Shown piece by piece: positions 412 to 63,676 of a stretch of 64,000 nucleotides of DNA; positions within the stretch are counted from its first letter, which is position 1, and every line of letters starts with the position of its first letter. The notes beneath the pieces are model-generated. The model made no database searches. It saw nothing but the letters and a program-made list of their open reading frames with translations, and was not told where the DNA came from. The DNA comes from Tubiluchus corallicola (lineage: Eukaryota > Animalia > Priapulida), in assembly GCA_030141605.1 (NCBI GenBank), contig JAQGDQ010000022.1, forward strand, positions 1,054,001 through 1,118,000. The letters run 5' to 3'. The position numbers and the translations under genes were made by a program.

Positions 412-515
412 GTGTGGCGGGACGCAGCAGTACAGATATTCTATTCTCTAAGCTGTTGCACCGGCGGACTCATTGCCATGTCCAGTTTCAATAAATTTCA
501 TCATAATACTCACAG
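412..515 (+). CDS. SLC6 (sodium:neurotransmitter/amino-acid symporter) internal exon, TM6; 5' part of the gene lies upstream of the window
   Basis: ttttaccAG|GTGTGG...CACAG|GTaaa. Translates to [34 protein letters not shown], the SLC6 'VWxDAAxQIFYSL' TM6 signature. Confidence 0.95.
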
Positions 516-1728
516 GTAAAATACACAATGTGCAGAGTGTGACAAGCGTGCTTCAAAACGCATGATGTTATTTTAGTTTAAGTAATCCGTTTATGTTAAC
601 TAAGCAAATAAATAGAGGTCAAATAATAATTTGTGAAAGATTTGTATATAAGGTAACACATAAAACTTATTTTAGGAACTAAGAAATTGAAGTTATTTTT
701 ATAGGTTGTACACAAATCAAAAATCAATAATGATAAATTTTACATTTTTTTATCAAGATTTTGCTGAAGCTGACATTGTCAAAACAACCATCGAATATTT
801 GAAAAAATCTTCAAAAGGAATGTACAACTTTTTGGACTGAGCAATTCTTATATAACTCTGTATAGGCTTAACTGAAGAATAGTTAGTTGGCCTCTTGTTT
901 GAGAGTTATGGAGACTTTTATCATACATTGATTGTTTTACCAGCCATGAAATTTAGTTTGAATTAGAGTGGAAACGCTAATGTGGTTGGATACGGCACAC
1001 GTCAAGTAAAATGTTATATATCTCCGGTACTTCTGGTATGACTTCCGCTTTATAAAAGCTCCCACCAGTGTTGCGTAAGCTACGAAATCTTGCCATTTAC
1101 TCATTATGCGACTAACAACGAGTATTCTAAATTTTTAGGAAAAAACAATGACAATAACATGACCAAGAGCTAGGGATCCCCCATCTTTTCATGTCGGTTC
1201 AAAAAATATAACATTGATTCGCTACTTCCGTGGCTAATTTATACAACTTGTAGTAATACCTTCATGGCTCTGAAAATATTTAACATAAACTTTTATAATA
1301 CCTTATAATGCACAAATTACTAATTTTATTTACTGTTTGTTTTTTTTTTGACTGAAATTTTCAAATTGTACATTTAATTTCAATTGCCTACAGTTTTTTT
1401 ACTTTTGACGGACCCTATAATTGCAGTGAATCTGTTTGGGTGATAGAAACAAGGGTAATTAATGCATAAATTTTTACAAAATAATTATTTGTTCAGGAGT
1501 CAATGTTAAGCTGACCATGAACCGCTACGATGATCAAAAAATGTGATCGAACCCGATTTTCTAGTACTACACATTAAGAAAGTTCGTTTATTAAACAACT
1601 AAGTTTCTTAATTCTTTGCTATTTTTTACTATTAGAAAAGAACACTTACCTCAGCCATATACCGCTTCATTGTGCACGTATAGTTTAATTATTATCAATT
1701 GTAAGCCAAAACATTTGTGTAAATACAG

Positions 1729-1853
1729 GGATGCAATATTGATACCGATTATTAACTGTGCAACCAGCATCTACGCAGGCATGGCTGTTTTTTCGACACT
1801 CGGTTTCATGGCGCTTGAAAAAAATACAACAGTGGCAGAAGTAGCCGAACAAG
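1729..1853 (+). CDS. SLC6 exon, TM7
   Basis: 125 nt, AG/GT bounded, phase-compatible with both neighbours. (R)DAILIPIINCATSIYAGMAVFSTLGFMALEKNTTVAEVAEQ(G). Confidence 0.95.
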
Positions 1854-2609
1854 GTTTGTACAAACACATAAAATGACGTACTATTCATAGAATCAACTAG
1901 CATGGCTGAATAGACGAACTTATAGTGGACTAATTGTTTGTGAAAATATTTTAATATGGTATTTGTAAATATGTTCATTATATTGTATATAGTTTTTAGT
2001 TTAGCACTTTAGTTTTTTTAGTATGCACTGGACGCATTTGTCTTGAACAGTGTTGTAATGAGGGAACCGTTTTTATGACAAATAAAGAATTAATATATAT
2101 AATATATATATATATATATAAGTAACCGAGCAAAATTTGTATAGGCCGCAAAGGCAAGGTAAAAAAGGTGATATTTGCATTAATTTTGTGTTGTGCATTG
2201 TCATCCTCACGCAAAATTTCAAAATGAAAATTGCACATTTGCTTGATCGTGCAATACGTACGACTGTACCTACTGAATTATGGAATAATTTATGGAGACT
2301 AAGAAAAAATTGACTTCAGGAGCACTCGGCTGTCTTACGTCTAAGAATCTCCAGGGCAAAATTGTAAAAATTTGCATGAACAAAATTAGGAACTAGTAAA
2401 AAAATCTGTCTTTTTTCCATTAAAGTAGTGATAATCAAGTAGTTGAGTAGTTAACACTGTACTGTGATTCTAGCAAGAGATCATTAGCAAGCAAGAAAAT
2501 AAAGGACTAAATCACGAATGACATTCTATTAGCCTATATATAATTATACCCGCAGTCGTTCTATTACATGTATATGCCAACACTTCTTGTTTTTACTTTT
2601 GCTTTTCAG

Positions 2610-2722
2610 GACCCGGCTTGGTGTTTGTCGTTTATCCGGAAGCTTTGGCTAACATGCCCGTTGCTCCAATGTGGTCAATTCTTTTCTTTTTTATGATGAT
2701 CATTTTAGGGTTTGGATCTCAG
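2610..2722 (+). CDS. SLC6 exon, EL4-TM8
   Basis: 113 nt after a strong pyrimidine tract. [38 protein letters not shown] contains the SLC6 GPGLxFxxYPEA motif. Confidence 0.96.
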
Positions 2723-2971
2723 GTAGGCTAAATAAAGTAATGACATATTATTTCTTACCCTTAAAAAGAGAAAGCAAATTGTATAGTTGACAACATCATA
2801 CTACTATTCGTGACGGAGTGAAGATTATTGAAAAATAAGCTTTTTTGTAAAATGTGTTTACATTATGGACTTGTAAAACAAAGTGACAGAGTGCACTGGG
2901 GCCATGTGACAGTTTGTCAAGGTGAGTTCGTAAAACTATATATTCAAAATAAATTTTCATTTATGCTACAG

Positions 2972-3109
2972 TTTACCATTATGGAAGCAATCATGTCTGC
3001 TTTGTTGGATCAGTTTCATGGAATACGTGACAGCACCCTTCGCAGCATCATTTTCCGGTTTTGCTGTTGCGCTTTTGGCTTCCTCATAGGCCTTCCCATG
3101 GTTACAAGG
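2972..3109 (+). CDS. SLC6 exon, TM8 end-TM9
   Basis: 138 nt, phase 0/0, ctacAG|...AGG|GTgag. FTIMEAIMSALLDQF...FLIGLPMVTR. Confidence 0.93.
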
Positions 3110-3414
3110 GTGAGATTATTTCAAACTTTTTGTACGGTTACTTCTGTGTAATTAACATCTGCGAAATTTGGCAAGTGACAGAAACACAGAAAGAGGGAGA
3201 GAGTAACAAAAATGAGAAGGGAGGAAAAGCAAAGGGAGGCGGAAAACTAAGAGAAGAAGAGAGAAGGAAAGAGAAAGAAAGAGAAAAATGAGAGAGAGAG
3301 AGTGAGGGAGAGAAAGGGAAGAGAGGAGAGGAAGGAAAAAACGAAAGAGTGCGAAAGAAAGAAAAGTAAACCGTTTATATGTGAATAAGCCGATAATTTT
3401 TATGAATCTTACAG

Positions 3415-3514
3415 GCTGGTCAATACATAGTTACATTGGTGGATGAAAGCGTGGGCGGCTTGCCTTTAATAATCATCGGCTTTGCAGAAGTGATGGCAAT
3501 TAACTGGGTTTACG
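3415..3514 (+). CDS. SLC6 exon, TM10
   Basis: 100 nt. AGQYIVTLVDESVGGLPLIIIGFAEVMAINWVY(G), donor G|GTAAG. Confidence 0.94.
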
Positions 3515-3799
3515 GTAAGCTCTGCGCGTTTATTTATTCAGCTCTCATAAAACATACTAGTAATTTGAGTAGTAGACAAAGTGAAATGGTTTTGTTGGAC
3601 CAACGAGCTGCAACAGAATTAGTTATAAATAATTATCAAATCACACTGTCGTTTTCGTCATTGTCGTCATTGTGTCCCAGTGTCTAGTTTTCAGAGGTTT
3701 GATAGTGAAACCCGCATTCCGGTCGCGCCACAACAGTTACATTAAGTAATAAGCAGACGTGCTCTATCCTTGCACATTGCTCAACAGTGTCTGCAAAAA

Positions 3800-3901
3800 A
3801 TCATCATCACCGTCGTCATCATTGTCATTATTATTATTGTGGCCCTCATTTTCATTGTTGTCATCGTCATCATTATCACGATTATCATTCTCCATCATCA
3901 C

Positions 3902-3932
<31 letters not shown>

Positions 3933-3998
3933 GTCATCGTCATCACTATTATCATCATTTTCAGAGTCCTCATTATTATTATTGTGGTTGTTGTTGTT

Positions 3999-4029
<31 letters not shown>

Positions 4030-4040
4030 TCATCATCATT
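3800..4040. repeat. Compound trinucleotide microsatellite (ATC/GTC/ATT/GTT)n in an SLC6 intron
   Basis: Directly visible; source of the poly-I/H/S/M ORFs in the track. Confidence 0.95.
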
Positions 4041-4081
4041 TTAATCGTAGTCCTCGTTATTAAAGAAATTTTTTGCTTTAG

Positions 4082-4182
4082 GTTTTTACAAATTTGCGGA
4101 AGACATAGAAATGATGATTGGAAAAAAGCCAAGCATTTATTGGCACATCTGCTGGCGGTACATTGCTCCTGCCATTCTATTG
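4082..4182 (+). CDS. SLC6 exon, IL5-TM11
   Basis: 101 nt. GFYKFAEDIEMMIGKKPSIYWHICWRYIAPAILL (SLC6 'DIxxMIG..P..YW..CW' motif), donor TTG|GTGAG. Confidence 0.95.
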
Positions 4183-4496
4183 GTGAGGCTCCTCTTACAG
4201 CCATTACGACAATTTTAAAAGTTGAGAATTGTAATTAAGCCCAAGCCACGTAGGCAAAAAGACAATTAATTGGTTGTGAGATCAAGTAGCGTTAAACCTA
4301 AAGATTAAACCTCATTCTGGTGTTCGGTTAGACGCAGAACTTGAATGACTAAAAGCTTCATTAAATATTAAGCGAAAAGATACATATGCAATTTAGTGTT
4401 CCTTACTTCAGGCACCAGCCTAACACAGGTGCAATACGTAGTTGTTCTCGGAAAACAAAAATTGAAAATTCGTCATTTGAGTTTTGGATTTTACAG

Positions 4497-4679
4497 GTTG
4501 TGTTCGTTATGAGCTGTGTGCAATACGAGCCCATCACTTACTATACACCAACAGCTGAAGGAGGTGTATACATCTATCCAGACTGGTGTGTAGCATTCGA
4601 GTGGATTATCGTTTCGTTGCCCTTAGGAGTAATCATTGGTGCTTTTTTCTACATATACTGCTCGCGTGGAGGCTGGGAG
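4497..4679 (+). CDS. SLC6 exon, TM11 end-TM12; ends at a GC donor
   Basis: 183 nt, phase 0/0. VVFVMSCVQYEPITY...YIYPDWCVAFEWIIVSLP...RGGWE. Donor GAG|GCAAGT is the site that keeps frame with the last exon. Confidence 0.9.
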
Positions 4680-4884
4680 GCAAGTATAAGACACAGTTAG
4701 AAGCATAGGACTAAATACTTGTTGTCTGTTCTGTTTGACTGTACAGACTAATCTGTTTGCCTGACTGACGGACTGACTAACTGACTGGATGACTGATCGA
4801 CTTAAATGAGTGAATGAATAAATGAATAAATAAAAGAAGGAATGGACGCATAATTAACGAACGAATGAAACTGGATGAAAGAAA

Positions 4885-5228
<344 letters not shown>

Positions 5229-6154
5229 AATTGAATGAATAAATGATGGACCAGGCTTACCGAGTGACCAACCAGTCACCCAAGTTGGTCAGTCAAAGCT
5301 TCAACACAGCCACACGATAACAGTGTATGTTTAAAATTAAAAAAGATCTAATAAGTCGACAGACACTAGATTCTATTAATAATCATGATTGGCTATAATT
5401 TACAATTATCTCAGAACCTATTAGTTTTAAAAAAGTTGACAAAGTTTGAAAAACGTTGCGATATCAAATGTCTTCTCGTACATTTAGTGCTTGAAAAACT
5501 GAGATTACTACAACAAAGTGATTTTTCTTTTAGCGTGTTTATATTGTTAACGTGTAACGTTATAACTATAATACTTAACTTATGATAAGCCAAGTTAAGG
5601 TTTCACAAATAAAATTTGATACTATTTTTAAAAAGCGAATTACAAGTTTATGTAGGCCTAATAAAAAATATTTTGAGGAGATTCTTATTAGAATTGTATA
5701 TCTCCACTGAAGCAAACCAATACTCTATCATTTAGTTTTAGGTTGAGCTTTGGCTTAAGAAATTGTCAGTCTGATGGTTAACATAACAATAGTTATTCTC
5801 TGCTTTATTTTTTCAACACAATTCCTGTATGTTTCGACTGAGAATCTGGGAATTCTCCTGCTTAAAAAAATAGTAAACGGAACTCTCTTTGATAAAAAAA
5901 ACCACAGGGGCAATTTCTGTTATTGTTTTCTTAACCAGGAGGCTTCTGACCCAAAACGAAATTAAGGAAAAGGGTAAAGCAAAAATTTCTTGATAACTTA
6001 CTATACTGTTTGTGACTGTTCTAGTTATTGCTTTGTTAATTAGTTTGAGTGACGTACACAAGAAATTGTAGTTTATCCTTTAAATTTTTTATCAACAATT
6101 GTAGAGTTAGAATTACCTTAGAGTTTTTGGGTGAAATGTGTTTCCCTCTTCTAG

Positions 6155-6382
6155 GCACTCAAAAAAGCTAAAGAACCAGATTGGGACTGGGGACCAGCAG
6201 AAACTGTAGCTCGTTTTAAACGTGCCAGCGAATCGAAGCCAATTATTAGGACTATCAGTCAAGAGCTGGCCATGGCAAACAGCATGACAACCATATCAAC
6301 CGATATAGCTCCAAATGGAACACTAGGCATAATTAATCCGAGCATTGAAGACAATGAAAAGAAAAAAACGAGTTTCTTTTAG
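6155..6382 (+). CDS. SLC6 terminal coding exon (cytoplasmic tail)
   Basis: tttccctcttctAG| then ALKKAKEPDWDWGPAETV...NEKKKTSFF*. Has the SLC6 C-tail 'PxxxWGP' motif. AATAAA at 6766 and 6862. Confidence 0.88.
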   Translation, partial: ALKKAKEPDWDWGPAETVARFKRASESKPIIRTISQELAMANSMTTISTDIAPNGTLGIINPSIEDNEKKKTSFF

Positions 6383-7962: not shown

Positions 7963-9396
7963 CTATTGCTGGTGCTGTTGTTGTTCTTCTTGTTGCTGCT
8001 GTCCAGTTTGCAGCTGTTGCTGTACTTCTTGCTGTTCAGCACTGACTTCCACTACTAGAGAGTTTGAGTGGTCAGAATCCTTAACTGCAGCCACTGGTTC
8101 AGCAGCATTCTCAGCTTTCTTCTCGATTTGAGACGCTACAGCTTCTTTACTTGCTGACTTATTCAATCCTTCAACTTCTTTGAGTTTTATTTGTTTTAGC
8201 TCTACGTCTAAGGAATCGCGTGACTGCTTGCCCTCAGAAGATGTCGCGTAACTGTCCGTTTTCTTACTACCAAATAGTGTTAACACCGTAGAAAGGGTTT
8301 TTAAATACTTAGGTGAGCTTGATGATTGAGATGTATTCTTCCGCCGTCGCACTACTTTTCGCCCCCCACAGATCTTTGCCCAGTCTGTAATCATGCCCTT
8401 GAAGCTCTTCCTGAAGGCATCATTGTAGAACGAATAAATGATGGTATTCAGCCAAGTATTGGTGACACACAATATCTGCTCAAAGTGAATTAGGAATGCC
8501 ATCGTTTTTTCTTGCTCTGTAGTGGCGCTACCGTAACCAAGTACCCGAGTAAACTGAATGACAAACACAGGCAAGAAACAAAGTGCAAACAACATCACAA
8601 TTGAGATCAACATTTTGATTGCCTTCTGACGCTGAGTTATGGATTCCTTTGGCAGGAATTTTCTTTCAGTGTTTTGTTTCCCCCATAAAATAAAACAAAC
8701 CCTCCCATACATGCCACCAATTACCAATAATGGTATAATGTATAGAATCAAACAAAGAACTACTGTGATGATTACTGCATTAGCATTGTTTTGTGGCCTA
8801 GCACAATAATAAACTATGGTTGAATTAACTCGTTTTTTTGCTACGCCATTGGAAGAATTTACAGTCTGAGATCCAGCCTCGAGTTCTGTGGAGTTGAAGA
8901 ATGCCGCCATTTTGGCCTTGTGATAGGCCATGGCGGCAAAATAACTCATCAGCACATTATAGACGATGTAACAAGACGCCACAACCCAGATGATGACAAC
9001 AGAAATGATGGTTCGCCGCTTGCCGAACTTCGCCTTAGACGGTTGAGCAATTGCGCGAAATCTATCACAAGCAATAGCGATCATCGTGAACAGACTACAG
9101 ATGTAGTTAAACTGGATAACGTAATACACCTTCAACCACTTACAGTTTTGAGGGAAGTCCTCCTGTGTAAAGAAGAGGACACGAATGAACGCGCACATGC
9201 TTATGCCCACCATTAAGTCTGCACAAGATAAAGACATGATGTAGATGTTGACCTGAGTCTTCATATCCTTGTTCCATAAGAACGTTAATATGATGGCCAG
9301 ATTGAATAAAATGATGAGACATACAGTGAGTATGTACAAAGCGACAACTGCTTCCCACCATCCTGGTGGCAAAAAGTACAAGAACGTCTCTGTCAT
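7963..9396 (-). CDS. Class A (rhodopsin-like) GPCR, peptide-receptor-like, intronless CDS, 477 aa
   Basis: Seven hydrophobic segments with FN (TM1), SLSCADL (TM2), Cys before TM3, DRF, W4.50, an ECL2 Cys, YIIP (TM5), FALCFLP (TM6), NTIIY plus helix 8 FRKSF. An in-frame TAA six codons upstream supports this ATG. Ligand class cannot be assigned. Confidence 0.93.
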   Translation of the reverse strand: MTETFLYFLPPGWWEAVVALYILTVCLIILFNLAIILTFLWNKDMKTQVNIYIMSLSCADLMVGISMCAFIRVLFFTQEDFPQNCKWLKVYYVIQFNYICSLFTMIAIACDRFRAIAQPSKAKFGKRRTIISVVIIWVVASCYIVYNVLMSYFAAMAYHKAKMAAFFNSTELEAGSQTVNSSNGVAKKRVNSTIVYYCARPQNNANAVIITVVLCLILYIIPLLVIGGMYGRVCFILWGKQNTERKFLPKESITQRQKAIKMLISIVMLFALCFLPVFVIQFTRVLGYGSATTEQEKTMAFLIHFEQILCVTNTWLNTIIYSFYNDAFRKSFKGMITDWAKICGGRKVVRRRKNTSQSSSSPKYLKTLSTVLTLFGSKKTDSYATSSEGKQSRDSLDVELKQIKLKEVEGLNKSASKEAVASQIEKKAENAAEPVAAVKDSDHSNSLVVEVSAEQQEVQQQLQTGQQQQEEQQQHQQ

Positions 9397-21611: not shown

Positions 21612-22150
21612 GTGAGTAACTTAATTATAATAACTAATTACATTAATTACACGTGGCGCCGGTATTGTTACTCATCATAATTATATCAATTTACATTCTA
21701 CCACACAGTAATCAATAAAATTCCAGAATGAACGCATCATTGAGTAAAAAGTATTGTCATTATTTAGAACATTCAACGTGTGAGATGCATATAGCAGCTT
21801 CATTCAGCTTTAGTTAATTTACAAATGTTGTTTTTACAAAGTTATAATCACTTAAATAATTCATTTGAATGTGATTCCAAGAAATCTAGATTATTTTCTA
21901 GCCCATTTATATAGCATTCTGTTTTTCTAATGTTTTTTTCTAACATAACTTACCAAACCCTTCATAGAAAATATATGATAGGCTAAAAATTGAAATTTGA
22001 AATATTCCGTTTTTATTAAGAGAAATTTCAGAAAATCAAAATTCGTAAATATTTAACAGCAACTAAAGATTTTAGCAATTTAATTTTTAGTATCTTAATC
22101 CAAGATTCATCATGTCTCGTACGTTTCAGACGTATTTTACTATATTACAG

Positions 22151-23689
22151 GCAAGGCAAACATTGGCTAGTCTTGGTGGCTACGGTTTTGGTGGTTACGG
22201 TGGCTATGGAACAGCTGGTTATGGTCACCTAGGTGGACACGGATATGCCGGTTATGGCGGACACAATGGTGGTTTGTTCAACTATCGAAGATCAGGATAT
22301 GGAGGATATGGAGGTGGATATGGATTAGGCGGATACGGTGGATATGGAGGGGCATATGGATTAGGTGGATACGGTGGATATGGATTAGGCAGCTACGGTT
22401 CATACGGATTAGGTGGCTATGGTGGAACAGATACATATGGATTAGGTGGATATGGATCAGGCAGATATGGTGGCGGATATGGTACAGCTGGATATGGAGC
22501 TGGATATGATAATAATGGATATGGCACAAAGGGACAACATGAAAACGGGCGTTATGGCGGGTACAGTGGTTACGATATAGGATATGGAGGTTTGTACTAT
22601 TTACCAACGCTTCGAGATATAGCTGTGATCGCATTTGGCAATTATGACTATGGTGATTACAACTACAACAACGGCTACGATGGTGGCAGTAACAACTACA
22701 ATGGTATAGCTGTTTCTAATTATGACTACAACACTCGTCCTGATGATTACAATGGACTAGAACAAGACCTCGGAATCTATGATTCGTCTAGCGCCAACAG
22801 GGGTTATCTCATTACAAACGGTGATGATGACGGCGATGATGATGCTCTAGAGCTTGCAGCAGAAAATGGACATCTAAGTAATGCTGGAAGTGGAGGAAGA
22901 GGAGTGCAAGCTGCTGGCGGTCGCAGAATTGGACTCGGGAATGCTGTAGCTTTTGAAGGAACTGAGGAATTCATTGGAACCGGTCCATTCAACTTTGAAA
23001 GCGCCAGGGGCAGAGCAGCATCAAAAACACTCCCCAATTCCTCGCCAGCAACAGAAGAAGCAGTTGTTGGGCGCCATTACGGCACAGGCTATGCCCAGCA
23101 ATGGAATGCCGCTTCAGCTGACCGTGCCGCATCCGGCTCAGGAGTTGCTGCAAGCACACGACAAGCTGCTCGCGATGCCAACCAGGAAGCTCTGGCAAGC
23201 TTTACACAAGCGGCTACTAGCGCCGGAGCAGGAGCCGCAGGAGCCGGATATGCCTTTAGGGCAAATCCTCAGTTCACTGGAATTCAAGCTGTTGGAGTTG
23301 CAGAGCCTGCAGTTCGATTAGGACCCGTTCGTGCAGTTGCGGCAGGACCACCTGCTATCAACAGAGCTTCCATCGGAAGAGGCACTGCTGGTGGGGCAAA
23401 TGTGGTCAGCGGAGTGACTGGGATACTTGTAGACAGCGGTGACGCTGTATCCATCAGTAGTGACGAGGGGGATGCACAAGAAAATGGTGATTTGTATGCT
23501 AACCTATATGGAGCGGCTGGTGAAGCACTACAGAGCCGAGGCTATGGTACTGGTTATAGCGCAAGCGGCTATAATCTGCTGAATGGTGGAACTGGTTATG
23601 GACTAGGCAACTATAACCAGTTAAATGGTGATACTGGTTATGGAGCATACGGCTATAACCAGCTAAACGGATACAACAATTACTATTAG
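22151..23689 (+). CDS. Gly/Tyr-rich low-complexity secreted structural/matrix protein, main exon (about 524 aa in total); composition like shematrin/prisilkin or cuticle/eggshell proteins
   Basis: Long ORF with synonymous codon variation. GYGG/GLGGYG repeats, an Asn/Asp/Tyr block, DDDGDDD, an Ala/Gly-rich region and C-terminal YNQLNG repeats. Acceptor tattacAG at 22150, AATAAA at 23785. Confidence 0.9.
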   Translation, partial: ARQTLASLGGYGFGGYGGYGTAGYGHLGGHGYAGYGGHNGGLFNYRRSGYGGYGGGYGLGGYGGYGGAYGLGGYGGYGLGSYGSYGLGGYGGTDTYGLGGYGSGRYGGGYGTAGYGAGYDNNGYGTKGQHENGRYGGYSGYDIGYGGLYYLPTLRDIAVIAFGNYDYGDYNYNNGYDGGSNNYNGIAVSNYDYNTRPDDYNGLEQDLGIYDSSSANRGYLITNGDDDGDDDALELAAENGHLSNAGSGGRGVQAAGGRRIGLGNAVAFEGTEEFIGTGPFNFESARGRAASKTLPNSSPATEEAVVGRHYGTGYAQQWNAASADRAASGSGVAASTRQAARDANQEALASFTQAATSAGAGAAGAGYAFRANPQFTGIQAVGVAEPAVRLGPVRAVAAGPPAINRASIGRGTAGGANVVSGVTGILVDSGDAVSISSDEGDAQENGDLYANLYGAAGEALQSRGYGTGYSASGYNLLNGGTGYGLGNYNQLNGDTGYGAYGYNQLNGYNNYY

Positions 23690-41440: not shown

Positions 41441-41561
41441 CTTAACGACAAATATGACTGAGTAATATAAAATATAAATATAAGTTTTCCACGAATTCAC
41501 ATGATTCTTTGTATTGGTTATCGTTGTAAATTATGTCATTTGGGTTACATTTTTATTACAG

Positions 41562-41917
41562 GTACGCGGCAATTGAATATCACAACAGAAGAAGCTCATT
41601 CGGCTTTATTCACCAACTCCTCCGTCCACTGTTCTGACTTTTCCAACGACAGCGAGTGTACGGAGAATCATGACGACAGAAGATCACTGGCGCAGCTTAG
41701 CAGAGAAGAGAGGAGACGAAGAAGAAGAGCCACACAAAAATATAGAACAGCTCATGCCACCAGAGAGCGCATTCGTGTGGAAGCATTCAACATGGCGTTC
41801 TCTGAACTAAGAAAATTATTGCCCACCTTACCGCCAGATAAGAAATTATCTAAAATTGAGATCCTTCGACTAGCAATCTGTTACATTTCTTATTTAAACC
41901 ATGTTCTAGATGTATAA
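41562..41917 (+). CDS. NHLH: bHLH transcription factor, NSCL/HEN/NHLH family (HLH4C orthologue-like), terminal coding exon
   Basis: [73 protein letters not shown] is nearly the NHLH1/2 bHLH sequence. Acceptor tttttattacAG at 41561. Confidence 0.97.
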
Positions 41918-50500: not shown

Positions 50501-51419
50501 TTTTAGGTTTGTTTTCGTAGTGACTGGTTTCTCGACAGTAACAACGATATTTCGACTTTCAACTTTCAGAAGTAGTTTTGAGTGAAAATGAACATTAGGG
50601 GTGAACAAACACTATAAAATTCGAATCAAGTGGAATTCTTGACTTTTGTATTCGAATGGTGTCGAATTTCAAGTTTTGAAAGAATTTTAAGTATTAAAGA
50701 TTTAAATTGCAAACAAGTAATTAAAAACAGTAATATGCTTGGAATTCAATTTACATCTGAGATGGCAAAGACTGTGCCTGCAGATACGTGGTGCCACTGA
50801 TTTACCACTAAGACTATAATGACTGATTTGTATTGCTGAAATTAACTATCGCACTGGAAATAGCTTGGCGCCCTTGTAATCTCATTATCTACTTATCGTT
50901 TTAAGTGATATCTTTGAAATTAATTGTTTTGTACGTCTTAGTTGCTTCTGATTACTCATTAAATTTAAAGGATATCAAAATGAATTTCCTTTTGCAAGGC
51001 ACGCTTTCGATACAATATTTTCTAATCTACTATAATATGACGCGCAATGCAGCTTGCATTGCAAACGCAAACTCTCCACCAAATTGCCACTCTCGCTACT
51101 TTTACAGCAGCTGGCTCACATTGCTTTCATTCTACCATAAAAACTATTAAAAAATTCCGAACGGAAGTGGTGATGACAGGCCACTGTGACATAGCAGTGC
51201 CTAGTTTTTTGCTGGATTATTGCTATGTTTACCTGCCTTGAGGGCAAAGTTTTTTTTTTATTTTTGAATTCTGCCTGTCCAATGTCTACAATAGACGAAA
51301 CAGGTATAATAATTATGATGATGATGGTAACAATTTGTTAAAAAACTGTGTGCTAAATTTTTCTGAATGCATGATATATGAAATGTTTACTGACAAAGAA
51401 ACAAAAGGAATTGGGGCAT

Positions 51420-52231
51420 CGAACTGTGCAAATTTATGAATCATAATTTGACGTTCGAATTGAGTTCGAATAAAAAATCGCTCGAATCGAATTCAAATCT
51501 TTAGAATTTTTCTTCCAATTCTGCATTCAAACTCGAATGCTCGATGCGTATGAATGGATGTTAACAGAATTTTTTGTAAAATTTAATAGTTACATCATCA
51601 TCAATGCGTTGTAGTGTCTTTATTGCTCAGTAAAAAATCGAATCGAATTTACAACTTTCAAACTTAAATCAAACCGAATTTGGGCATCTTCGAGTCACTT
51701 ATAAAATGGGTCTCACAAAGATCATGCATATTACTTGAGTTTGTTCTGTAGTAAAAACATTAGTAACCTGGAAATCGTGGCTAAACTGATTGCATGATGT
51801 TTTGATAATAAAAAAAGTAATATGTAGTAGAGATTGAGAAGTCTCAACCAGAAAGTGAATTCGAATAGAATAGAATTTGTAATTTTCGAACTCGAGTCCC
51901 ACCGAATTTCGAGATTTTGAGTCCAAATAGAATACTAATCAAGTTTTAAAAATTTTCGAATCAATTGTTGAATCACTAATAAAAAACGTTTCATAAAGAT
52001 CATGCATATATTATTTGATTTCGTTCTGCAGGAAAAAGATTAATTTTGTTTAAAAAAATTGTACACAGAAATCGCAGCTAATTTGTGCTTACTGTATGAT
52101 GCTTCAAATATTTTAATGATAAAGAATGTTTGTAGTTAAAATGCTGAATTATGCAAATCTATAATTTTAGGTTCAAATCGAATTCGAACATTCTAGTTTG
52201 ATTAAAACTCGAACGTAAAAGTTCATCCCTG
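51420..52231. mobile_element. Cluster of degenerate copies related to the hAT-type MITE at 52246
   Basis: TCGAA-rich. The block AAGATC(A/G)TGCATAT…GTTCTG(C/T)AG occurs at about 51718, 51996 and 52383. Ends in GTTCATCCCTG, a TIR-like end; another TAGGGGTGAAC end lies at 50596. Confidence 0.6.
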
Positions 52232-52245
52232 TCATCAGCTGCAAG

Positions 52246-52585
52246 TAGGGGTGACAATTTTCTACCAGAAAGCGAATTCGAATCGAACTGGATTTGTAAC
52301 ATTCCAATTGAACCGAACTTCAGTATTTAAAATTCGAATTGAGATTTCGAATTCGAATTCACCAGTAAAAATTAGTCTTTCAAAGATCGTGCATATTACT
52401 CGATCTTGTTCTGCAGTAAAACCTCTAATAGTTTGTTTAAAATTGTGCACAGAAATCGCAGCTTAATTATGTTAATTGCATGATGTTTCAGTCATTTTAA
52501 TGATAAAGAACATATGTGATTGAAGTGTTGAATTATTCGAATCTATAGTTTTAGGTTCGACTCCAACGTTCGTTGCTGACCCCTA
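52246..52585. mobile_element. hAT-type non-autonomous DNA transposon (MITE), 340 bp
   Basis: Termini TAGGGGTGACAA…TTGCTGACCCCTA. 8-bp target-site duplication GCTGCAAG (52238-52245) / GCTGCAAT (52586-52593). Confidence 0.82.
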
Positions 52586-52706
52586 GCTGCAATTTGTAAA
52601 AATTTGTAACACTGACCGATTGATGTGTTGAGTTTACTTAACAAACTCAGATCGAATGTGAATTGAAACGCGTTTTCAGCTTCGTAGTTCATGCTGCATT
52701 CATTGA

Positions 52707-52714
52707 TCACGTGA
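52707..52714 (+). promoter_or_regulatory. CLEAR-type E-box (TCACGTGA), candidate TFEB/MITF site of the PPT1 promoter
   Basis: Palindromic TCACGTGA 47 nt upstream of the PPT1 ATG. CLEAR elements near the TSS are characteristic of lysosomal genes. Confidence 0.65.
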
Positions 52715-52760
52715 AATTTGCAGAAAGTTAGTGTTTGGTGGATTTATCTACCGAAGAAAG

Positions 52761-52866
52761 ATGATTTTGTTGCTGGGTTTATTTCTTTTCGCGTTTTCAA
52801 ACGCGGAAAATGTAATTTTTGTGCAGCAAAATGAAACTTACCCAGTTGTTATGTGGCACGGAATGG
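52761..52866 (+). CDS. PPT1: Palmitoyl-protein thioesterase 1, exon 1 (signal peptide)
   Basis: MILLLGLFLFAFSNAENVIFVQQNETYPVVMWHGM(G), with the PPT1 'PxVxWHGMGD' motif split by a phase-1 intron. Confidence 0.93.
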
Positions 52867-53719
52867 GTACGCGAACTATTTCTTAGTAATCTTTTAATTC
52901 ATAAACTTACTTCAGTTATTGTGACTGTAGACTAGTGTTTAATTTAACATCAGTTTTAAGTTTCCTTTGTTTATAGAGTATGAATCGTCAGTTATTTCTG
53001 GTTGTGTGACTCCGATAACTTTTCAGTTCATTTGCCACCCATTCCCCAACCAACGTTATATTGTTATAATTTTTCTGCAGTTGTCACAATATACTTATAT
53101 AGTTAACCTTCCAAATTAGAACTGGCAGTCAACATAGTAATTACTAACTCGAATATGGTAGGTGGAGTGCTTTCCGCTGTAGTTCCTACCATTCAGTTTA
53201 ACTTGTATTGATAATGATAAAAGTTTTTCTTGTGATCGAGATGCTAGCCAATTAGCCACACATTTATTTAACTGTTATTGAAAATACTGAAGCTTAGTTC
53301 CAAGTGTAAAAACTGCATAGTTTTAGGTTTGCCTAAACCTCAAATTATCTGTCCCCTGCCTGATGAGCCACACATCTGTGGTTGCATCTACTGTTGACAT
53401 TATAATTTTCAATGCCACTTGAAGAATGGGAATCAAACCTTCTGTGGTAACATATGTGAATGTGTTGGTAAGTGGTGGGCTGTGGAGATGAAATGAGCAG
53501 CAGTATACTATGAAATTTCATTGAGCACTGTCTATGAAAAACAGAACAGCCACAAATGTGGAACAAGGTGATGCATAGCGTATTAACATAGAGCAAATTC
53601 AACACATGGCATATGTGTGTTGTATTTCCATATCATGGGCTGCTTAGCTTTATTCTGTTTTATTAATTCACATCAGTTGGAATTTGGATAGTGTGGGTTA
53701 CTGTGCATAAAATGTAGTA

Positions 53720-54583
53720 TGGCAGGCGCCGTTTAATAGACTCACTTTGGGACGAAGTGTTTTGACCCAATTAACCGACTCAGTCAATTAGCCAAAGGTT
53801 TAGTATATTATACAAGTTATACAGGGTTTAGCCTACTATACAAGTACGAGTCATCACTCATCACTATGCATTGCAAAGGCTTTAAATGGATTTTAGAAAT
53901 GAATTAATGTCAAAAATACCCATGTGCAATTATTGAAGAATCATAATTTATATAAGGGAACTAATAAAAAAAGAAAAAAAATTGCTAAGGTCGGTTGCTT
54001 CATTTCTTCACATAGAAGTTGGTTTAAGAAATTCTCATAGTGATAAAAACATTGAAAATCTGTGCTGTATACTGCACATATTCAAGCAAAATACCTAGTC
54101 ACCTATTGCTTCAGCTGTAGTTGGTGATCACCTTGTGAAAAGCTGCAAGAGCTTCAAAAAAAAGCACTGGGCAAATGATTAAATGTTTAGCTTCCAGAAC
54201 TAATGAGGTTATAAACAACAGCAATGGATAAACGGGTGGCAGATTCAAAGCAAAGCCACTATGCCAACATATTAGCACATATGATAAACACACTGGACTT
54301 GCTTACACACGAAGCTGTACTTAACATGACTGTTTCTACATAGATTATAGTGCACAAAAGCGATGTAAAGATGACATAAAAGCAGTAAAAGCTGTTTGGG
54401 TACGCACAAGTATTTTATTTTAAGTGCGTGAAGTAAAAATATCGAGCCAGTTATGCAGAGGTATTTGGAATTAGTTACTCAGAGTTTTTTATATGCATTT
54501 GAATAGGAGCAGCCTGTTTCAGGGGTTTTTGAGTCAAGTGACTGAGTCTATTAACCGTGAGTTTAATAAACGGCACCGTACTG
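53720..54583. mobile_element. Older pogo/Tigger-like non-autonomous element in PPT1 intron 1
   Basis: TA-flanked. Both ends are homologous to the element at 59990-61103 (GGCGCC..TTAATAGACT…GAAGTGTTTTGACC; GAGTCTATTAACCGT…TACTG-TA). TIRs are diverged. Confidence 0.75.
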
Positions 54584-54707
54584 TAGTGAAAGTGCTGGTT
54601 TTAGATCTAACAGATTAGTAGGTAATATATTGTTTTGAGATTTTCATAATGTACCTGATAGCTGAAATTGTACCCTTTCAGGCATATGAGAACAAGTTGG
54701 GGATAAG

Positions 54708-55301
54708 ATGGCTCACAGAGGGGTACTTTCCATTACCAGTCCAACAACTGTCGCAGATTTGTTAAAAGTGCTACATGAAGTGCAGCCAAATCGTGTGGGC
54801 GTGAGAAATCTCTTTGGCTCTATAACACACTTTGCATTTCCAACTAACCCATTTGATGAAGTTTACCCGCGCTTGCTGGTTGGCGATAAATCGATCGCTA
54901 TGAACAAAGATCGACTGAAGTTTGAAGGTGTTACTCATGTGCTTAATACCGCTCAGGGTGGACGATTTGCGCAGGTGAATACAGGCCCCTCTTTCTACGC
55001 AAGTATTGGTGTTCAATATTACGGAATTTGTGCTGAGGATAGTTTCGAATATAAGCTGTCTACTCATTTCAGTGAGTGTGCGTTTTTCATAGACAGTGCT
55101 CTGCAGTCTGGAGGAAAAGTACTCGTGCACTGCTTTCAAGGAATAAGCCGATCGGCTACGATTGTTGTCGCATTTTTAATGATGAAAAGAGGCATGTCAG
55201 CCAAGGAGGCTTTGCGTACAGTTCGTCTGAGACGAGAAGTATATCCAAATGATGGCTTTTTGGCCCAGTTGTGTGAACTAGAATCTGTCTTAAGATCTTG
55301 A
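54708..55301 (+). CDS. Atypical dual-specificity protein phosphatase, DUSP3/13/26-like, intronless, nested in PPT1 intron 1
   Basis: 197 aa. DEVYPRLLVGD, GVTHVLN, general-acid loop AED, catalytic VHCFQGISRSAT, PNDGFLAQL. Acceptor ccctttcAG at 54681, AATAAA at 55640 and 55761. Confidence 0.95.
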   Translation: MAHRGVLSITSPTTVADLLKVLHEVQPNRVGVRNLFGSITHFAFPTNPFDEVYPRLLVGDKSIAMNKDRLKFEGVTHVLNTAQGGRFAQVNTGPSFYASIGVQYYGICAEDSFEYKLSTHFSECAFFIDSALQSGGKVLVHCFQGISRSATIVVAFLMMKRGMSAKEALRTVRLRREVYPNDGFLAQLCELESVLRS

Positions 55302-55914
55302 ACTAGAAAGAAATGCCAAAGAAATATTGAAATTTTTTATATACTTGATTCATTGTCTTCTTTATACTTATTGGACTTTGTTTTAGGGCATTTTAGAATG
55401 TCATGCAGTGTCTGTGATTAGAACTTAAATAGGCCTTGTAGTGGGCTAGTGCTGTGATTATATTGTTTTCAATTTTTAATATAAATTTATTGTTATTTTT
55501 CAGATGTTTTATAAAAAACTATTTTAAGAGATTACTTAAATACACAAGTAATATTTTGTTCAAAATGTAACATTTAGGGAAACTTGTTGTCACATTTAAG
55601 TCTTTTACTGGCTATCTATCATTCTTCAATGTTTCTTTTAATAAACTCTGATTACTTGTTGAAAAAAGGAAAAATGGAAATAAGTGTTGTGTATCACATT
55701 CTCATATGTTGGTGTTGCATTATTAAAAAAAATGCTTTTGATAAATACGTGAACAATAGCAATAAACTGGAAAAAGTTATTTATTTTTCTCTGAATTACG
55801 TACACTGGCAATCAGCAAGATGTGTCAAGGATGTATATTTTATGGATCTGATTGTCTTGATTTCTCAAAAACATGTTGAAGAAATGGTTAAAATATTTCT
55901 AATCTGGACATATT

Positions 55915-56235
55915 GATTTTTATTTTTCACTTGAATAAGTTTGGCATTAATTTTAGAAAGGTGTTTTTTGGGTGTGTGGCCTGCACTACTCCATGTAAAA
56001 TGTTGTATAAGTGTAAATTTTGACACTTGATGGCGGGGCTTACCAGATATTGAGTGGCTATGGCAGGACTGGAATTGTTGGTCTATCTCAGCTAGGTAAA
56101 GATGTGACACTGAACCAGCAGATCTGTGGGTGGCAGTATAGATGATAATGCCCAGAAGCAGTTTTTCCCAGTGGTCACTCATCCATTCACTAACCAGGTT
56201 CCTCATTGCTTAGTTTCTTTAGCCAAGTGTGCTTT
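55915..56235 (-). mobile_element. 5S rRNA-derived SINE-like element (SINE3-like)
   Basis: Minus strand GAAACTAAGCAATGAGGAACCTGGTTAGTGAATGGATGAGTGACCACTGGGAA closely follows the 5S internal control region, then a unique body and an A-rich end. Confidence 0.65.
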
Positions 56236-57348
56236 TTTGCTAACATTACTTTCATGCCATGTAGTTCGAGCACCATTCAAAAATATAATTTATTATTTCC
56301 TTAGTTTAAAATAGTCTTAGGTACATTGCTCCGTGGCTGTTCTCGTGGAAGTTTACAAATCCAACTTAATTTGGTATAGATTTGGATAAATTTGCATTAT
56401 TTTTGCACTTTAAGTGCCAATAATGTTTACTTTGCCATTATATCGATTTTGATTAAGTGTGTGATTTGTTGAAAAAATATTGCAGCTGTTGCTAAAATGT
56501 AGTCAGTGAACTGCTTTTAATTCCTATGCTAGCAAACTTGGCTTAGTTTTTGTAAAATGTTGGACATGAATTCTTAACAGCATTTTGTAATTGTCTGCAT
56601 AAAAGATGGAAAGTTTAACAAATCAAATTTTATACAATTTTAACCCTGACATTTTCAAATGGGTTTGTTGTTACTTTTTCTTCGTTGTTCTAGATACATT
56701 ACTTGGAGCCTCTTGTTTTCTTTAAACTTCCGTCAAATTTAATCAAATTGTAGTACATATTTGTTACATTCATTTTAAGTTATGGCCTGAATATACCAAA
56801 GAATTGTTGTGTTTGCCAGCAGAGTTGTTTGTTGCATTGTTTGAAAATTTATGTGAAATATACAAGCGTTTCTTTTGAATGCAGGATTGTTAATGTTTTT
56901 GGATTTACATTGTCAATCTGTTAACTGGTAGACAGACCATTTACATACACAAGACATGAGATCGTCAGCATTTGTTGTTTATTTTCCTGCCATATAGGTT
57001 GCCAAGCTAATTATGTACAAAAAGACATCATTTAGCACAAGTTTTTGGTTTTTCTAATTGCTTTTTTAATTTTTTTGCCATTGTGTTTGTATATGTGCAA
57101 GGAACCTCTAGGAGCCAGAATGTTTGCATCTGTACCTACAATAATTGCTCCACTTGTACCTGCAGCAATTACAAGCTCAGCTAAATTTTACATTTGTGAA
57201 GCCAAAACAGTGTCTTTGCTCCTTACTAAAGTAGTTCAGAGATTACAAAATGTAATAGGTATAATAGTTTTTGTTGCTCGCAGCTTCTTTGACAAATTCA
57301 TATACGAAATTATGTTTTAGGTAACTGACTTTATACGTCCTTTTTCAG

Positions 57349-57497
57349 GTGATACTTGCTGCAATCCTCTTAGTTTGGGCTCCATCCAGCGACTAATTGA
57401 GAAGCATGTCCCTGGAATTTATGTGCATTCGCTAGAGATAGGTAGCGGGTTTGTAGAAGACATGGAAAATGGCTTCTTTATGAACTCAAACGATCAG
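57349..57497 (+). CDS. PPT1: PPT1 exon 2
   Basis: 149 nt. [50 protein letters not shown]. Confidence 0.96.
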
Positions 57498-58527
57498 GTT
57501 TTAACATTTTGCTTAACTACGCATTTGCACTAAAGCATTTCATGTGTGAAGAACTGGTAATAGCCAATATCTAAATAACTTAATTATCTTGATAAAAGTC
57601 TTAGCCCAATCTTAGCATATGATTTGAAGGCTTTCCTTTACCTGATAGGCCTGTCTCATTAAGCAACAATGGTCTTGTCACTTAGGAGTTCTGAACAGTA
57701 GCTAAGAGTTAGCACTATTTTCAGTTTTAATGTATTAAGTGGTTATGTATACTGGCTTTGCACTACAGTTACTAACCTAGCCAAGTCATTTGCATATATT
57801 TATTTATTACTGGAAAACGATAACAGCTTTTGCACAAGTATACATGAAAACGCCCACAGACCAAAACAAAGCAACATTGTTTTACACCACATTTCACAAC
57901 TCCTTATACACTTATGCAATAAGCCATCAAGTTTACCTGCATCTGTGAAAGCTATGTAGGTGTCACATTTTTCCACATAACAAAGAACAGTAACTATAAA
58001 GTACTTGTTGCAAAGACAATAATTGCCCTCTTACATGTCTTTATTTAAATGTAGGTGACAAGGTAGTCTGTTTACTTTCATTTTTATATGTGTTACATTT
58101 TTCTTCAGTGTGATGAATAATAGTCTCAAATAAATTCTTTTTTAAGAGAATAATGTGACAAATTATTATGCATTATTACATCAGGCTGTTCAAATCTTTT
58201 GTTAGTCTTGTTAACAAAAATTTTGCCGACTGTGATAAGCTAAAAAAAAGATTTCAACAGCCCTGAAGTTGGTACAGAATTAGGTATTATAGTGCAAAAA
58301 CCTCTTTTGGTGTAGGATTTGCATCTTTCTATTCTACTCACTTTTCAAATACAACAAATTTTAAAATAATGTCATTAGTGAATGGTATCAATATCGCTGT
58401 AATCAACAATACTTGAGGAGTCTTGTTTAAGAGTTGTCACAACTTGCTTGTGTGTTGTATGATGTTGGTATTAACAAATCATTGAAAACAGACAAGTTGT
58501 TACTAACACTTTATGCCACTTTTGTAG

Positions 58528-58616
58528 ATAGCACTTGCCTGTAAGAAAATTGCAGCTGATCCAAAGCTAAGAGGAGGCTACCACGCAATGGGTTTCTCTC
58601 AAGGTGGACAATTCTT
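58528..58616 (+). CDS. PPT1: PPT1 exon 3 (catalytic Ser)
   Basis: 89 nt. [29 protein letters not shown](L), nucleophile motif GFSQG. Confidence 0.96.
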
Positions 58617-59989
58617 GTAAGTTATACACCATTGGGTTTTCAGTTCTTAAAAAACGATTAAGGAAGTGATTCGTATAACTAATCTGGAAAGCAGAGGAAT
58701 TTTTTGTCAGTGCTTGTTTACGAAATATTTCAAGTTTTTGCTGTAACTGAGGCCTGGCAGATGGGGTAGACTCGTTTTCCAGAAAAGTTTTTGCCAGTTT
58801 TCCCTGACACAAAAAAAAATCACAGAAAACTTTTTTGCCAGAAAAATTTATGTCACAGAAAGAAATTCCCAGAATAGCCATTTCCCAGAACCATCATTTC
58901 CCAGAAAATGAAATTCATGGAAAATGTAATGTTAGATGATGCAAAATCAAAAGTAGTTTGTTTTAATTACGTGTATTGATTAATACCAATTATGTGATAA
59001 GAAAATGTGATCAATTTGTTAAGACAAGAAAGTAGATCTGTAACATAGGAACAATCATGTTGATCTTTACATATACGCAATAGTGAGTAATCGCGCCATT
59101 GAAGTGAAGCCGTGTCGAGCTTGTTGTCTGACTGCTTAGGAATCTCACTTTGGACAGTTCCTTTCACTGTTATGCCGAATTATTTTGCTGACTTAAGGAG
59201 GATGTATATGCATCTGATTGTGACTGTGACATCTCTGCTTGTTCAATATTTCATCTCAGTGAATTATTTTTAAAATGAACTAGGATCCGGTCATGAAAGA
59301 ACCTGCAAAAAAATCTTGTAAAGGAGCTGATTCAAAATTTATTGAGCAAATTTGGACTTCATTATAAGGCTTGGTGTTTTCATTTTCTAGATTCTTTATT
59401 AAGCTTTATTTCAAATCATTTGAAAATCAGGTAAATTTGAGGTGGTTATATGGCAAATGATACAATGCAAATTGAATCTAATTTGACGTAGAGAGGGAAA
59501 GGCAAACAGAAAAAACCTGAAGGCTTTATCCTACTAAAATAGCAAATCGTGCAACTAAAAACGCAACTACGATTTTTCTGTTAAAAAAATATTTCCGGGA
59601 AGTTTTTTCTGTAAAAAAGTAAAAAAGTTTCTGGGAAACAGACCTAAACCCTGGCAGATTGGTAGCCAGGCCGATTATTTTGGCTTCAGGAATATTTTGA
59701 ACAAGACAGAATTTTGACAGTTGGCAACAACAAACTAATAATTAATTTCAATAATATAAGCATTAGGCACTTATTGTTTTTTTAAATTAGTTTTCTGCTT
59801 TGGTTTGAATTTTGAATGCACTTTAATTGTGAAAGAAAGCAAGAGTTCAAATTTCAGTAAATTGTTTTGTGGTAAGTCCTTTCTAATGTAATGGTTTTAA
59901 GAGCTAAAAAGTGAATCGGATGCTAAATATTTTACTGAATGCACGAGTAAATTAAATACAGAATTTATACAGATTTTAAAATACTTGTA

Positions 59990-61103
59990 CAGTAGGCGCC
60001 ACTTAATAGACTTGCTTTGTGACCGAAGTGTTTTGACCAAATTAACCGACTGAACCTATTAACCAATGGGTATAGTATTACTGGTATAGAAGTATGAATC
60101 ATCAGCCTAGTATACAGTGCAAAGGTTTTTAATGAATTTTAGAAACAAAGTAATGCTTAAATTCTTTTGAGCCATTAAAATTTTAAAAAAATATTTAAAA
60201 ATATTAATTTATATAAGTGATAAGCTTATCTCTTGTAACATAGTGGGAATTGAATCTCAAGTGAATCGGGTGTAACTAAAACAGTTCTGAATCATCTGTT
60301 CACTGACATTGCTCCATGACATAGAGATATGTAAATGAGCTCCAGTAAATGCAGTGTGTTGAGGAGGCTGCGGCATTGTCCAAATCCATTGCTTCTAACA
60401 CTTTCGCATAATTGACGTACTTTGGGAAATTTTCGACTGCGCTGCAGGCGCATCTCTACCCCATCTTTGAAAATTTATCGTACTGCTCTAAAATTTTCAG
60501 TTTCTCCTTAACTGTTAGATCTTTATGCTTATGCTCCATTTTTCAAACTTCTTAACTTTATGTTCTTATTTGCTGTAAAATGTTTACTTTTGTAAGTCAC
60601 GAGGAATACTGGCTGATTACTGTACCAACGTCTTTGACTGTTAACTGATTAAGAGTGAAAGCATGATTTGCTTAAAAGCTTCAAAAGGAAAACCTCTAGA
60701 CAAGTGATGAAATGTTTAGCTTCCGGAAATTCTTGGGTAATGAGGTTAATTGCAGTGGACGAGCGGGTAACAGATTCAAAGCAAAACTGCTGTGCTACCA
60801 TATTAGTATATGATAAATGTACCTGCTTATAAGCAAAACGGTACTTAACGTGATTGTTTCTACGTATATTTTGGTGCACAAAAGCCAAGTAAAGATAACA
60901 TAAAAGTAGGAAAGGCTCTTTGGGCAAATATAAATGTCTTGTTTTAATTATGTGAAAGAAAAATATTGAGTCAATTATTTAGAGTTACTTGAGTCAATTA
61001 CCGACAGTTTTTATGTACATTTGAATAGAAGTGGCCCGTACCAGGCATTTTTAAGTCATTTAAGCGATTGAGTCTATTAACCGTTTTTAAGTGGCGCCTA
61101 CTG
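59990..61103 (-). mobile_element. pogo/Tigger-family DNA transposon, internally deleted, with a transposase N-terminal remnant
   Basis: Perfect 17-bp TIR CAGTAGGCGCCACTTAA / TTAAGTGGCGCCTACTG and TA target duplication. Minus strand from 60539: MEHKHKDLTVKEKLKILEQYDKFSKMG*R…KISQST, a broken CENP-B/psq-type HTH. Confidence 0.9.
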
Positions 61104-61226: not shown

Positions 61227-61297
61227 GAGAGCTGTTGCACAAAAATGTCCAATTCCACCAATGATAAACCTGATTTCATTTGGAGGACAACATCAAG
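61227..61297 (+). CDS. PPT1: PPT1 exon 4
   Basis: 71 nt. [23 protein letters not shown](G). Confidence 0.96.
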
Positions 61298-62209: not shown

Positions 62210-62297
62210 GTGTGTATGGCTTCCCACGTTGCCCTGGTGACAACTCAACACTCTGCGATATTGTTAGGAAGCTCCTGAACTTGGGAGCATATACTAG
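62210..62297 (+). CDS. PPT1: PPT1 exon 5
   Basis: 88 nt. [29 protein letters not shown](S). Confidence 0.95.
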
Positions 62298-63056: not shown

Positions 63057-63071
63057 CTTTGTGCAGCACAA
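63057..63071 (+). CDS. PPT1: PPT1 exon 6, 15-nt microexon
   Basis: tttacAG|CTTTGTGCAGCACAA|GTATGT, phase 2/2. Supplies (S)FVQH(N), filling the gap between AYT and LVQAQYW. Confidence 0.88.
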
Positions 63072-63292: not shown

Positions 63293-63383
63293 TTTAGTGC
63301 AAGCGCAGTATTGGCATGATCCACTAAATGAAGAACTGTACCGAAATAAAAGTATTTTCCTTGCAGATGTTAATCAAGAAAAT
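63293..63383 (+). CDS. PPT1: PPT1 exon 7
   Basis: 91 nt. [30 protein letters not shown]. Confidence 0.96.
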
Positions 63384-63577: not shown

Positions 63578-63676
63578 GTCAAGAATCCAAAGTACAAGGA
63601 AAACCTGGCAAAACTGAAGAATTTTGTGATGGTTATGTTTGCAGATGATACCATGGTGGATCCGAAAGAATCTGAG
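63578..63676 (+). CDS. PPT1: PPT1 exon 8 (catalytic Asp region); gene continues beyond the window
   Basis: 99 nt. VKNPKYKENLAKLKNFVMVMFADDTMVDPKESE. Confidence 0.95.

Follow-up and report, generated by a model that had tools for sequence, protein, structure and literature searches.

The window analyzed here, a 64,000-nucleotide (nt) stretch from the priapulid Tubiluchus corallicola (contig JAQGDQ010000022.1, positions 1,054,001 to 1,118,000), carries the 5' part of PPT1, the gene for a lysosomal hydrolase, and, inside its first intron and on the same strand, a gene for a DUSP3-like dual-specificity phosphatase (hereafter DUSP). The nested open reading frame (ORF) is intact, keeps its catalytic motifs, lacks the coding intron of its family, and follows a splice acceptor that scores better than chance. 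As it stands this is an annotation point, a DUSP3-like gene hidden in PPT1 intron 1. A first-pass annotation of the same DNA had described an intact, intronless, same-strand DUSP at this place, and all its coordinates were confirmed; it had gone on to propose a two-enzyme locus with one promoter, and it is the source of the DUSP transcript that has to be argued.

PPT1 and the phosphatase gene in its first intron

52707-52714, no strand assigned: CLEAR/E-box-like palindrome TCACGTGA, 47 nt 5' of the PPT1 ATG
52761-52866, plus strand: PPT1 coding exon 1, with a hydrophobic, signal-peptide-like N-terminus and a phase-1 donor (TGG/GTACGC) at 52867
52867-57348, plus strand: PPT1 intron 1, 4,482 nt, GT-AG
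54708-55301, plus strand: intronless DUSP3-like ORF, 197 aa (594 nt), intact, inside PPT1 intron 1
55640-55766, plus strand: possible poly(A) signals (55640, 55722, 55761), with an A-rich tract behind the first
57349-57497, 58528-58616, 61227-61297, 62210-62297, 63057-63071, 63293-63383 and 63578-63676, plus strand: PPT1 exons 2-8; the gene continues past the window end

Joined, PPT1 exons 1-8 (to 63676, within the window) give an open reading of 236 aa, in which the Palm_thioest domain, the GxSxG nucleophile and the hydrophobic N-terminus are all present; the C-terminal exons lie outside the window. The product is 82.8% identical over 192 aa to the PPT1 of Priapulus caudatus. Its identity to P0121 is higher, 94.7% over 226 aa; P0121 is a PPT1 of 303 aa encoded on a contig of 1,224 nt from a near relative, and the highest-identity named PPT1 match listed for it is that of P. 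caudatus (80%). The P0121 contig is likely a spliced transcript because it is too short for introns, and it spans the exon 1/2 boundary as predicted. It also matches the 15-nt microexon at 63057-63071, which is required for the open frame. The P. caudatus RefSeq model of PPT1 (P0157, XP_014669955.1) begins within exon 2 and has no signal peptide; it is likely an incomplete annotation. The palindrome TCACGTGA, which we take to be a CLEAR-type motif, is a candidate in function only, and its pattern set has seven matches within the window and is thus weak evidence taken alone.

The nested ORF matches Pfam DSPc at 102.6 bits (cut-off 33.5), and the residues D111, H141, C142, G145, S147 and R148, which make up the HCxxGxSR loop and the general-acid Asp, are invariant in 28 of 28 aligned sequences. 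With 197 aa and Pfam matches to phosphatase families only, the product has no N-terminal MAPK-binding rhodanese domain; it is predicted to be a cytosolic enzyme, and its AUG stands in a strong context (A at -3, G at +4). The best named single-domain match is the P. caudatus DUSP3-like protein XP_014667516.1 (59% over 184 aa), which has no signal peptide and whose N-terminus is about 20 residues longer. The two form a clade in a 44-row tree (support 99/96), with a terminal branch of 0.33 for the window protein vs 0.82 for P. caudatus; because its end branch is the shorter one, the window DUSP is not a decaying copy and appears to be under selection. No DUSP protein was found from the near relative that supplied P0121 (the best single-domain match being the 59% one), a blank that carries no evidential weight. 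Two sites 3' of the DUSP ORF, at 55386 and 55503, look like strong acceptors; they may be U-rich sequence of an untranslated region (UTR).

How did such a gene come to lie in an intron? Metagenome contigs scanned with the 28-protein alignment yielded 78 homologous loci (a scan with a single protein gave no match). Eighteen of them break at residue 61/62, behind an AG and in phase 2; judged by eye, their flanks fall into about 11 distinct groups. Four of the 18 have another intron, near residue 136, and neither intron occurs in the window DUSP. Of the other 60 loci, unscored for introns, most are short contigs, perhaps transcripts, and a few carry long multi-domain ORFs without introns. Since the coding intron of its homologues is missing from the window DUSP, retroposition is the simplest reading and the likely origin of the gene. 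A tblastn search found no PPT1 match at the 78 DUSP loci, most of which are too short to tell. Three of the metagenome contigs, of 50-54% GC, carry intronless ORFs of 1,282-1,856 aa with three tandem DUSP3-like domains each (L026 1708-6465, L050 3853-7701, L053 2139-7709).

The acceptor at 54681 and the sequence 5' of it

52560-53060, no strand assigned: CpG-undepleted zone (19 CpG vs 16.5 expected) that spans exon 1, the likely PPT1 promoter before it and ~190 nt of intron 1 behind it
52912-53028, plus strand: four clustered TCAGTT hexamers, where a DUSP first exon might have an alternative start
53158-53473, plus strand: GTs at 53158, 53327 and 53468, possible donors of an intronic DUSP first exon (scores 2.6, 3.6 and 3.7; top 1-2.3% of GTs)
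~53715-54584, no strand assigned: high-copy element resembling a non-autonomous DNA transposon, whose inverted repeats are terminal and subterminal; another copy at ~59990-61093
54622-54681, plus strand: nearest possible 5'-UTR intron, 60 nt; its donor TAG/GTAATA ranks in the top 1.7% of GTs and its acceptor in the top 1.2% of AGs
54686-54706, plus strand: six-codon out-of-frame upstream ORF (uORF) in weak context, whose AUG overlaps a UGA at 54687-54689 and which stops 1 nt before the DUSP ATG

The DUSP ORF is preceded by a CAG ending at 54681, with a CTGAT 26 nt before the AG and a pyrimidine tract between them. Scored with matrices built from 14 acceptors and 14 donors, hand-annotated within the window, this acceptor reaches 4.28, a value matched by 41 of 3,471 other plus-strand AGs (own site included; top 1.2%). 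It ranks sixth among the 263 AGs of PPT1 intron 1, a site as good falls in 1.9% of random 30-nt stretches, and eight of the 14 true acceptors outscore it in leave-one-out. Because the acceptor scores above chance, a 5'-UTR intron ending at 54681 is likely. The first-pass view of a spliced-exon-like acceptor before the DUSP is upheld by this score; of the details offered for it, the branch-like pentamer falls away, occurring in 30% of random 36-nt stretches, that is, at chance level. On the donor side, 126 GTs separate exon 1 from the acceptor, and six of them reach scores of 2.6-3.7 (that at 54400 inflated by its match to a training site), and the PPT1 exon-1 donor, at 0.1 in leave-one-out, scores below six intronic donors. 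A 9-mer of the repeat element, 54397-54405, is identical to the PPT1 exon-1 donor. Separately, the second-best acceptor in intron 1 (53080, score 7.2) would open a cassette exon that ends the PPT1 frame after 43 codons, a possible poison or UTR exon.

Where could a transcript begin? DNA methylation is predicted for P. caudatus (PMC8821070), so that CpG depletion should be informative here by inference. The ratio of observed to expected CpG is 1.2-1.5 upstream, in the PPT1 promoter zone; the counts fall to 16 vs 47.1 expected in 53238-54707 and to 14 vs 50.4 in 55302-57348, the DUSP ORF standing at 24 vs 28.3. The sole promoter-like zone 5' of the acceptor would then be the PPT1 promoter with the first 190 nt of intron 1; as the only CpG-undepleted stretch upstream, 52560-53060 is the favored place for a DUSP start, in exon 1 or just after it. 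Four copies of TCAGTT in 111 nt are rare (P=0.0016 from shuffled sequence, for such a cluster at any place in the window), but the cluster was found after scanning eight motif types and is a lead only. The hexamer is initiator-like by its consensus. The repeat element, missed in the first-pass annotation, ends ~97 nt before the acceptor and leaves 37 nt before the donor at 54622. Its inverted arms are 53725-53745/54557-54577 and 53771-53789/54536-54554, its copies are 71-74% alike in self-BLAST, and the summed contig depth over it exceeds 1,000 in most bins vs ~2-35 in unique parts. Another high-copy repeat family, rich in TTCGAA, occupies 51400-52570, immediately 5' of the PPT1 promoter.

Two sequencing runs were compared over 52300-58800, which takes in PPT1 exons 1-3. 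X1 behaves as DNA: introns are covered and repeats are deep. X2, whose RNA nature is a guess, has 14 records; of the eight pieces listed, seven fall on the repeat, and the eighth spans 55413-55573 and has five differences, which is too little to count as expression. Among the 15 of 22 joints listed, none links 52866 to 54682 or to 57349, and this is evidence neither way.

Possible sources of the phosphatase transcript

The reading we favor, with about even confidence, gives the DUSP, likely a retroposed gene, its own non-coding first exon inside PPT1 intron 1. After insertion by retroposition, transcription would most likely start either near the beginning of the intron, where CpG and TCAGTT are frequent and a donor at 53158-53468 would be used, or in the 37 nt that separate the repeat element from the donor at 54622. 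The first exon would be spliced to the acceptor at 54681, translation from the DUSP AUG would yield an enzyme predicted to be cytosolic, and polyadenylation would follow near 55640-55780. In mammals, ~86% of expressed retrocopies use new promoters and ~11% borrow one (PMC4772013).

Several points weigh against this reading. The mammalian proportions cover all retrocopies, not first-intron ones only. The intronic first exon is a candidate seen in no transcript, and the splice matrices come from small training sets. The 60-nt option is shorter than all 12 introns measured in the window, the smallest of which is 194 nt, and in leaders through the donor at 53158 an upstream AUG opens an ORF that runs across the DUSP start. 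CpG depletion across 53238-54707 disfavors a CpG-rich mid-intron promoter, and 54585-54707 contains no CpG at all. As to origin, the gene may have lost its intron precisely and not been retroposed: 11 of 216 AATAAA sites have a tract as A-rich as the one behind 55640, which makes the latter a marginal poly(A) relic, and no target-site duplication of at least 7 nt was found between 54585-54707 and 55655-55760. Old insertions, it should be added, lose their target-site duplications.

The first-pass annotation had instead joined PPT1 exon 1 directly to the DUSP exon (52866^54682), emphasizing that the two agree in frame across a single stop. The join reads 37 codons, UGA (54687-54689), six codons and then the DUSP ATG, in one frame. 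A frame match has a chance of 1 in 3, a figure given there too, and within eight codons a single stop is expected in 32% of cases and at least one stop in 40%, so that both features are at chance level. Because any phase-1 upstream ORF (e.g., through a donor at 53162) also terminates at this UGA, the stop is not tied to PPT1; we read match and stop as coincidence, ordinary 5'-UTR sequence. Nor is the UGA shown to be an assembly error, since an X1 contig over 54563-54924 has no difference at 54687-54689, although X1 may be the window's own sample. What stands of the two-enzyme proposal is the nesting, the acceptor and, given the CpG zone, a possible shared promoter. In this form, transcripts would start at the PPT1 promoter, splice exon 1 to 54682 and end by intronic polyadenylation without readthrough, the DUSP being made at low level by reinitiation, by leaky scanning or from starts in exon 1 past the PPT1 AUG. 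We consider this a possibility to be reckoned with, if a somewhat unlikely one. The only CpG-undepleted stretch 5' of the acceptor serves it, the acceptor looks real and is met by the PPT1 pre-mRNA before that of exon 2, and there are precedents in Taf9 within Ak6 and unc-17 within cha-1. Yet every DUSP transcript would cost one PPT1 mRNA, and the joined leader has six upstream AUGs, five of which had been overlooked: the PPT1 start (A at -3, 37 codons), one whose 39-codon ORF runs across the DUSP start, and four with short ORFs, among them the AUG that overlaps the UGA. Reinitiation declines with uORF length in yeast data (PMC5389480), and in unc-17/cha-1 the common exon is untranslated (PMC3875643), whereas PPT1 exon 1 is coding. 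The 37-codon ORF, proposed as a uORF in the first-pass annotation, is a strong one, and the leader would be a poor DUSP template. Intronic leaders carry one to three upstream AUGs in five of the six tested and six in the other; because a translatable leader is likelier for a DUSP that appears to be under selection, we prefer an own first exon to a shared one, though low-level 52866^54682 splicing may occur under either. The further idea that one CLEAR-like promoter serves both enzymes, with the 37-codon uORF metering the DUSP and tying it to lysosomal (TFEB/MITF-type) control, we hold to be doubtful.

Comparison among animals bears on the shared exon from both sides. In P. caudatus, PPT1 (XP_014669955.1) lies on a scaffold of 222,238 nt and DUSP3-like XP_014667516.1 on one of 299,932 nt, a mild argument against the nesting being conserved; yet exon 1 is exactly what the PPT1 model of this species lacks, and a scaffold break in intron 1 could explain this and hide the nesting. 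PPT1 and the listed DUSP3-like gene are on sequences of different length in six of six species (Priapulus, Argiope, Tachypleus, Cherax, Ridgeia, Homarus), a comparison weakened by paralogues, mixed assemblies and the missing exon 1 of the Priapulus model.

Four other accounts dispense with a cis-spliced non-coding leader or with a working gene. An unspliced transcript, started in the 3' end of the repeat or in the next 120 nt, would make the acceptor incidental; the repeat does end close to the acceptor, and an ORF not depleted in CpG is what one expects just 3' of a start site, but chance would place a comparable acceptor in just 1.9% of 30-nt stretches, 54585-54707 is free of CpG, and synonymous CpG in the DUSP (16/80) differs from that in PPT1 (7/66) only at P=0.17, which is not significant. 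This we judge improbable. A silent or barely expressed recent retrocopy, with a working DUSP3-like parent elsewhere in the genome, would suit the missing coding introns, the uneroded CpGs of the ORF in a depleted intron and the marginal A-rich tract after the first AATAAA; it is quite improbable in view of 594 nt free of stops and frameshifts, catalytic residues all kept, a short branch, a strong start context, and an acceptor and poly(A) signals in place. In nematodes an acceptor shortly before the AUG is the usual geometry of trans-splicing. If 54681, with its acceptor 26 nt before the AUG, took a spliced leader that freed the DUSP cistron from PPT1 pre-mRNA, the upstream-AUG problem would vanish; the literature searched held no report of spliced-leader trans-splicing in Priapulus, and no spliced-leader RNA family matched within 52000-58000 (a small stretch of little weight), and we rate this very improbable.

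Lastly, readthrough or selenocysteine (Sec) insertion at the UGA would send a 241-residue, signal-peptide-bearing DUSP to the endoplasmic reticulum or lysosome, an outcome that the first-pass annotation had raised conditionally, and we find it scarcely credible. In its favor there is one stop, in frame, and UGA is the leakiest stop codon, above all with C at +4 (PMC4615788). The +4 base here is G, as had been cautioned earlier, and neither UGA-C nor UGA-CUA/CGG is present; the 119 nt 3' of the UGA fold no better than shuffles (z=+0.53), giving no stem-loop, and no Sec insertion sequence (SECIS) matched in Rfam at E<=5. The PPT1 exon-1 motif WHG occurs in 0 of 234 fetched DUSP-motif proteins, a set without the locus of any close relative, and the PPT1 nucleophile motif likewise in none; a strongly hydrophobic N-terminus is found in two of 209 DUSP proteins (both fragments beginning in the catalytic loop) vs 83% of 132 PPT1 proteins, and no 241-aa fusion is among the best 120 of 321 matches sized 108-345 aa. 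A catalytic cysteine would be ill-suited to an oxidizing lumen. A loose SECIS-like pattern had one match, at 55749, rejected for lack of Rfam support, and Rfam matches to IMES-3 and snoR1 score far under their gathering thresholds.

Elsewhere the window carries the 3' exons of a sodium:neurotransmitter symporter (SLC6) gene (412-6382, plus strand), an intronless rhodopsin-family G protein-coupled receptor gene (7963-9396, minus strand; 477 aa, Gln-rich tail), a Gly/Tyr-rich ORF of 525 aa without a Pfam match (22112-23689, plus strand), which resembles structural proteins of cuticles or egg envelopes, and an intronless basic helix-loop-helix gene (41501-41917, plus strand; 138 aa), which we take to be NSCL/HEN-like.

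Comparison with known nested genes

To our knowledge, no functional link connects PPT1 and DUSP3, and the pairing of the two genes was not found described in the literature searched. Nested intronless genes are common: ~20% of 84,483 annotated animal retrogenes are intronic (PMC5408686). If the exon is not shared, the DUSP would be a nested retrogene with a start of its own, which is the more frequent situation in mammals (~86% new promoters; PMC4772013). Mcts2 in H13 and Nap1l5 in Herc3 are similar in that an intronless gene within a host intron has its own promoter and can affect host polyadenylation; they differ in their CpG-island promoters and imprinting, whereas the DUSP has CpG-depleted upstream sequence and a predicted 5'-UTR intron.

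If, instead, exon 1 is shared, the architecture would be one already known. The closest likeness is Taf9/Ak6, a "hitchhike" type of nested retrogene in mouse and human, in which a retrocopy in a 5' intron of the host encodes an unrelated protein and uses host upstream exons (PMC5408686, PMC4772013); the human genes have exonic sequence in common (PMC7749173). There, junctions and starts from cap analysis of gene expression (CAGE) were shown, whereas the PPT1/DUSP junction is a candidate, and its host exon bears a 37-codon signal-peptide ORF and four more AUGs. In Caenorhabditis elegans, unc-17/cha-1 likewise has a same-strand gene in the first intron of another, the choice between them being made by alternative splicing and polyadenylation (PMC3875643); its common exon is untranslated and its products act in one pathway, whereas PPT1 exon 1 is coding. 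The window locus has the early-intron, same-strand nesting and the 3' splice site of shared-first-exon genes and lacks the untranslated shared exon of the unc-17/cha-1 type. Should the shared junction prove the main source of the DUSP, it would test downstream initiation past a 37-codon ORF in an early-branching ecdysozoan and the co-regulation of a lysosomal hydrolase and a signaling phosphatase; next to Taf9/Ak6 and unc-17/cha-1, it would differ in the long signal-peptide ORF on the shared exon.

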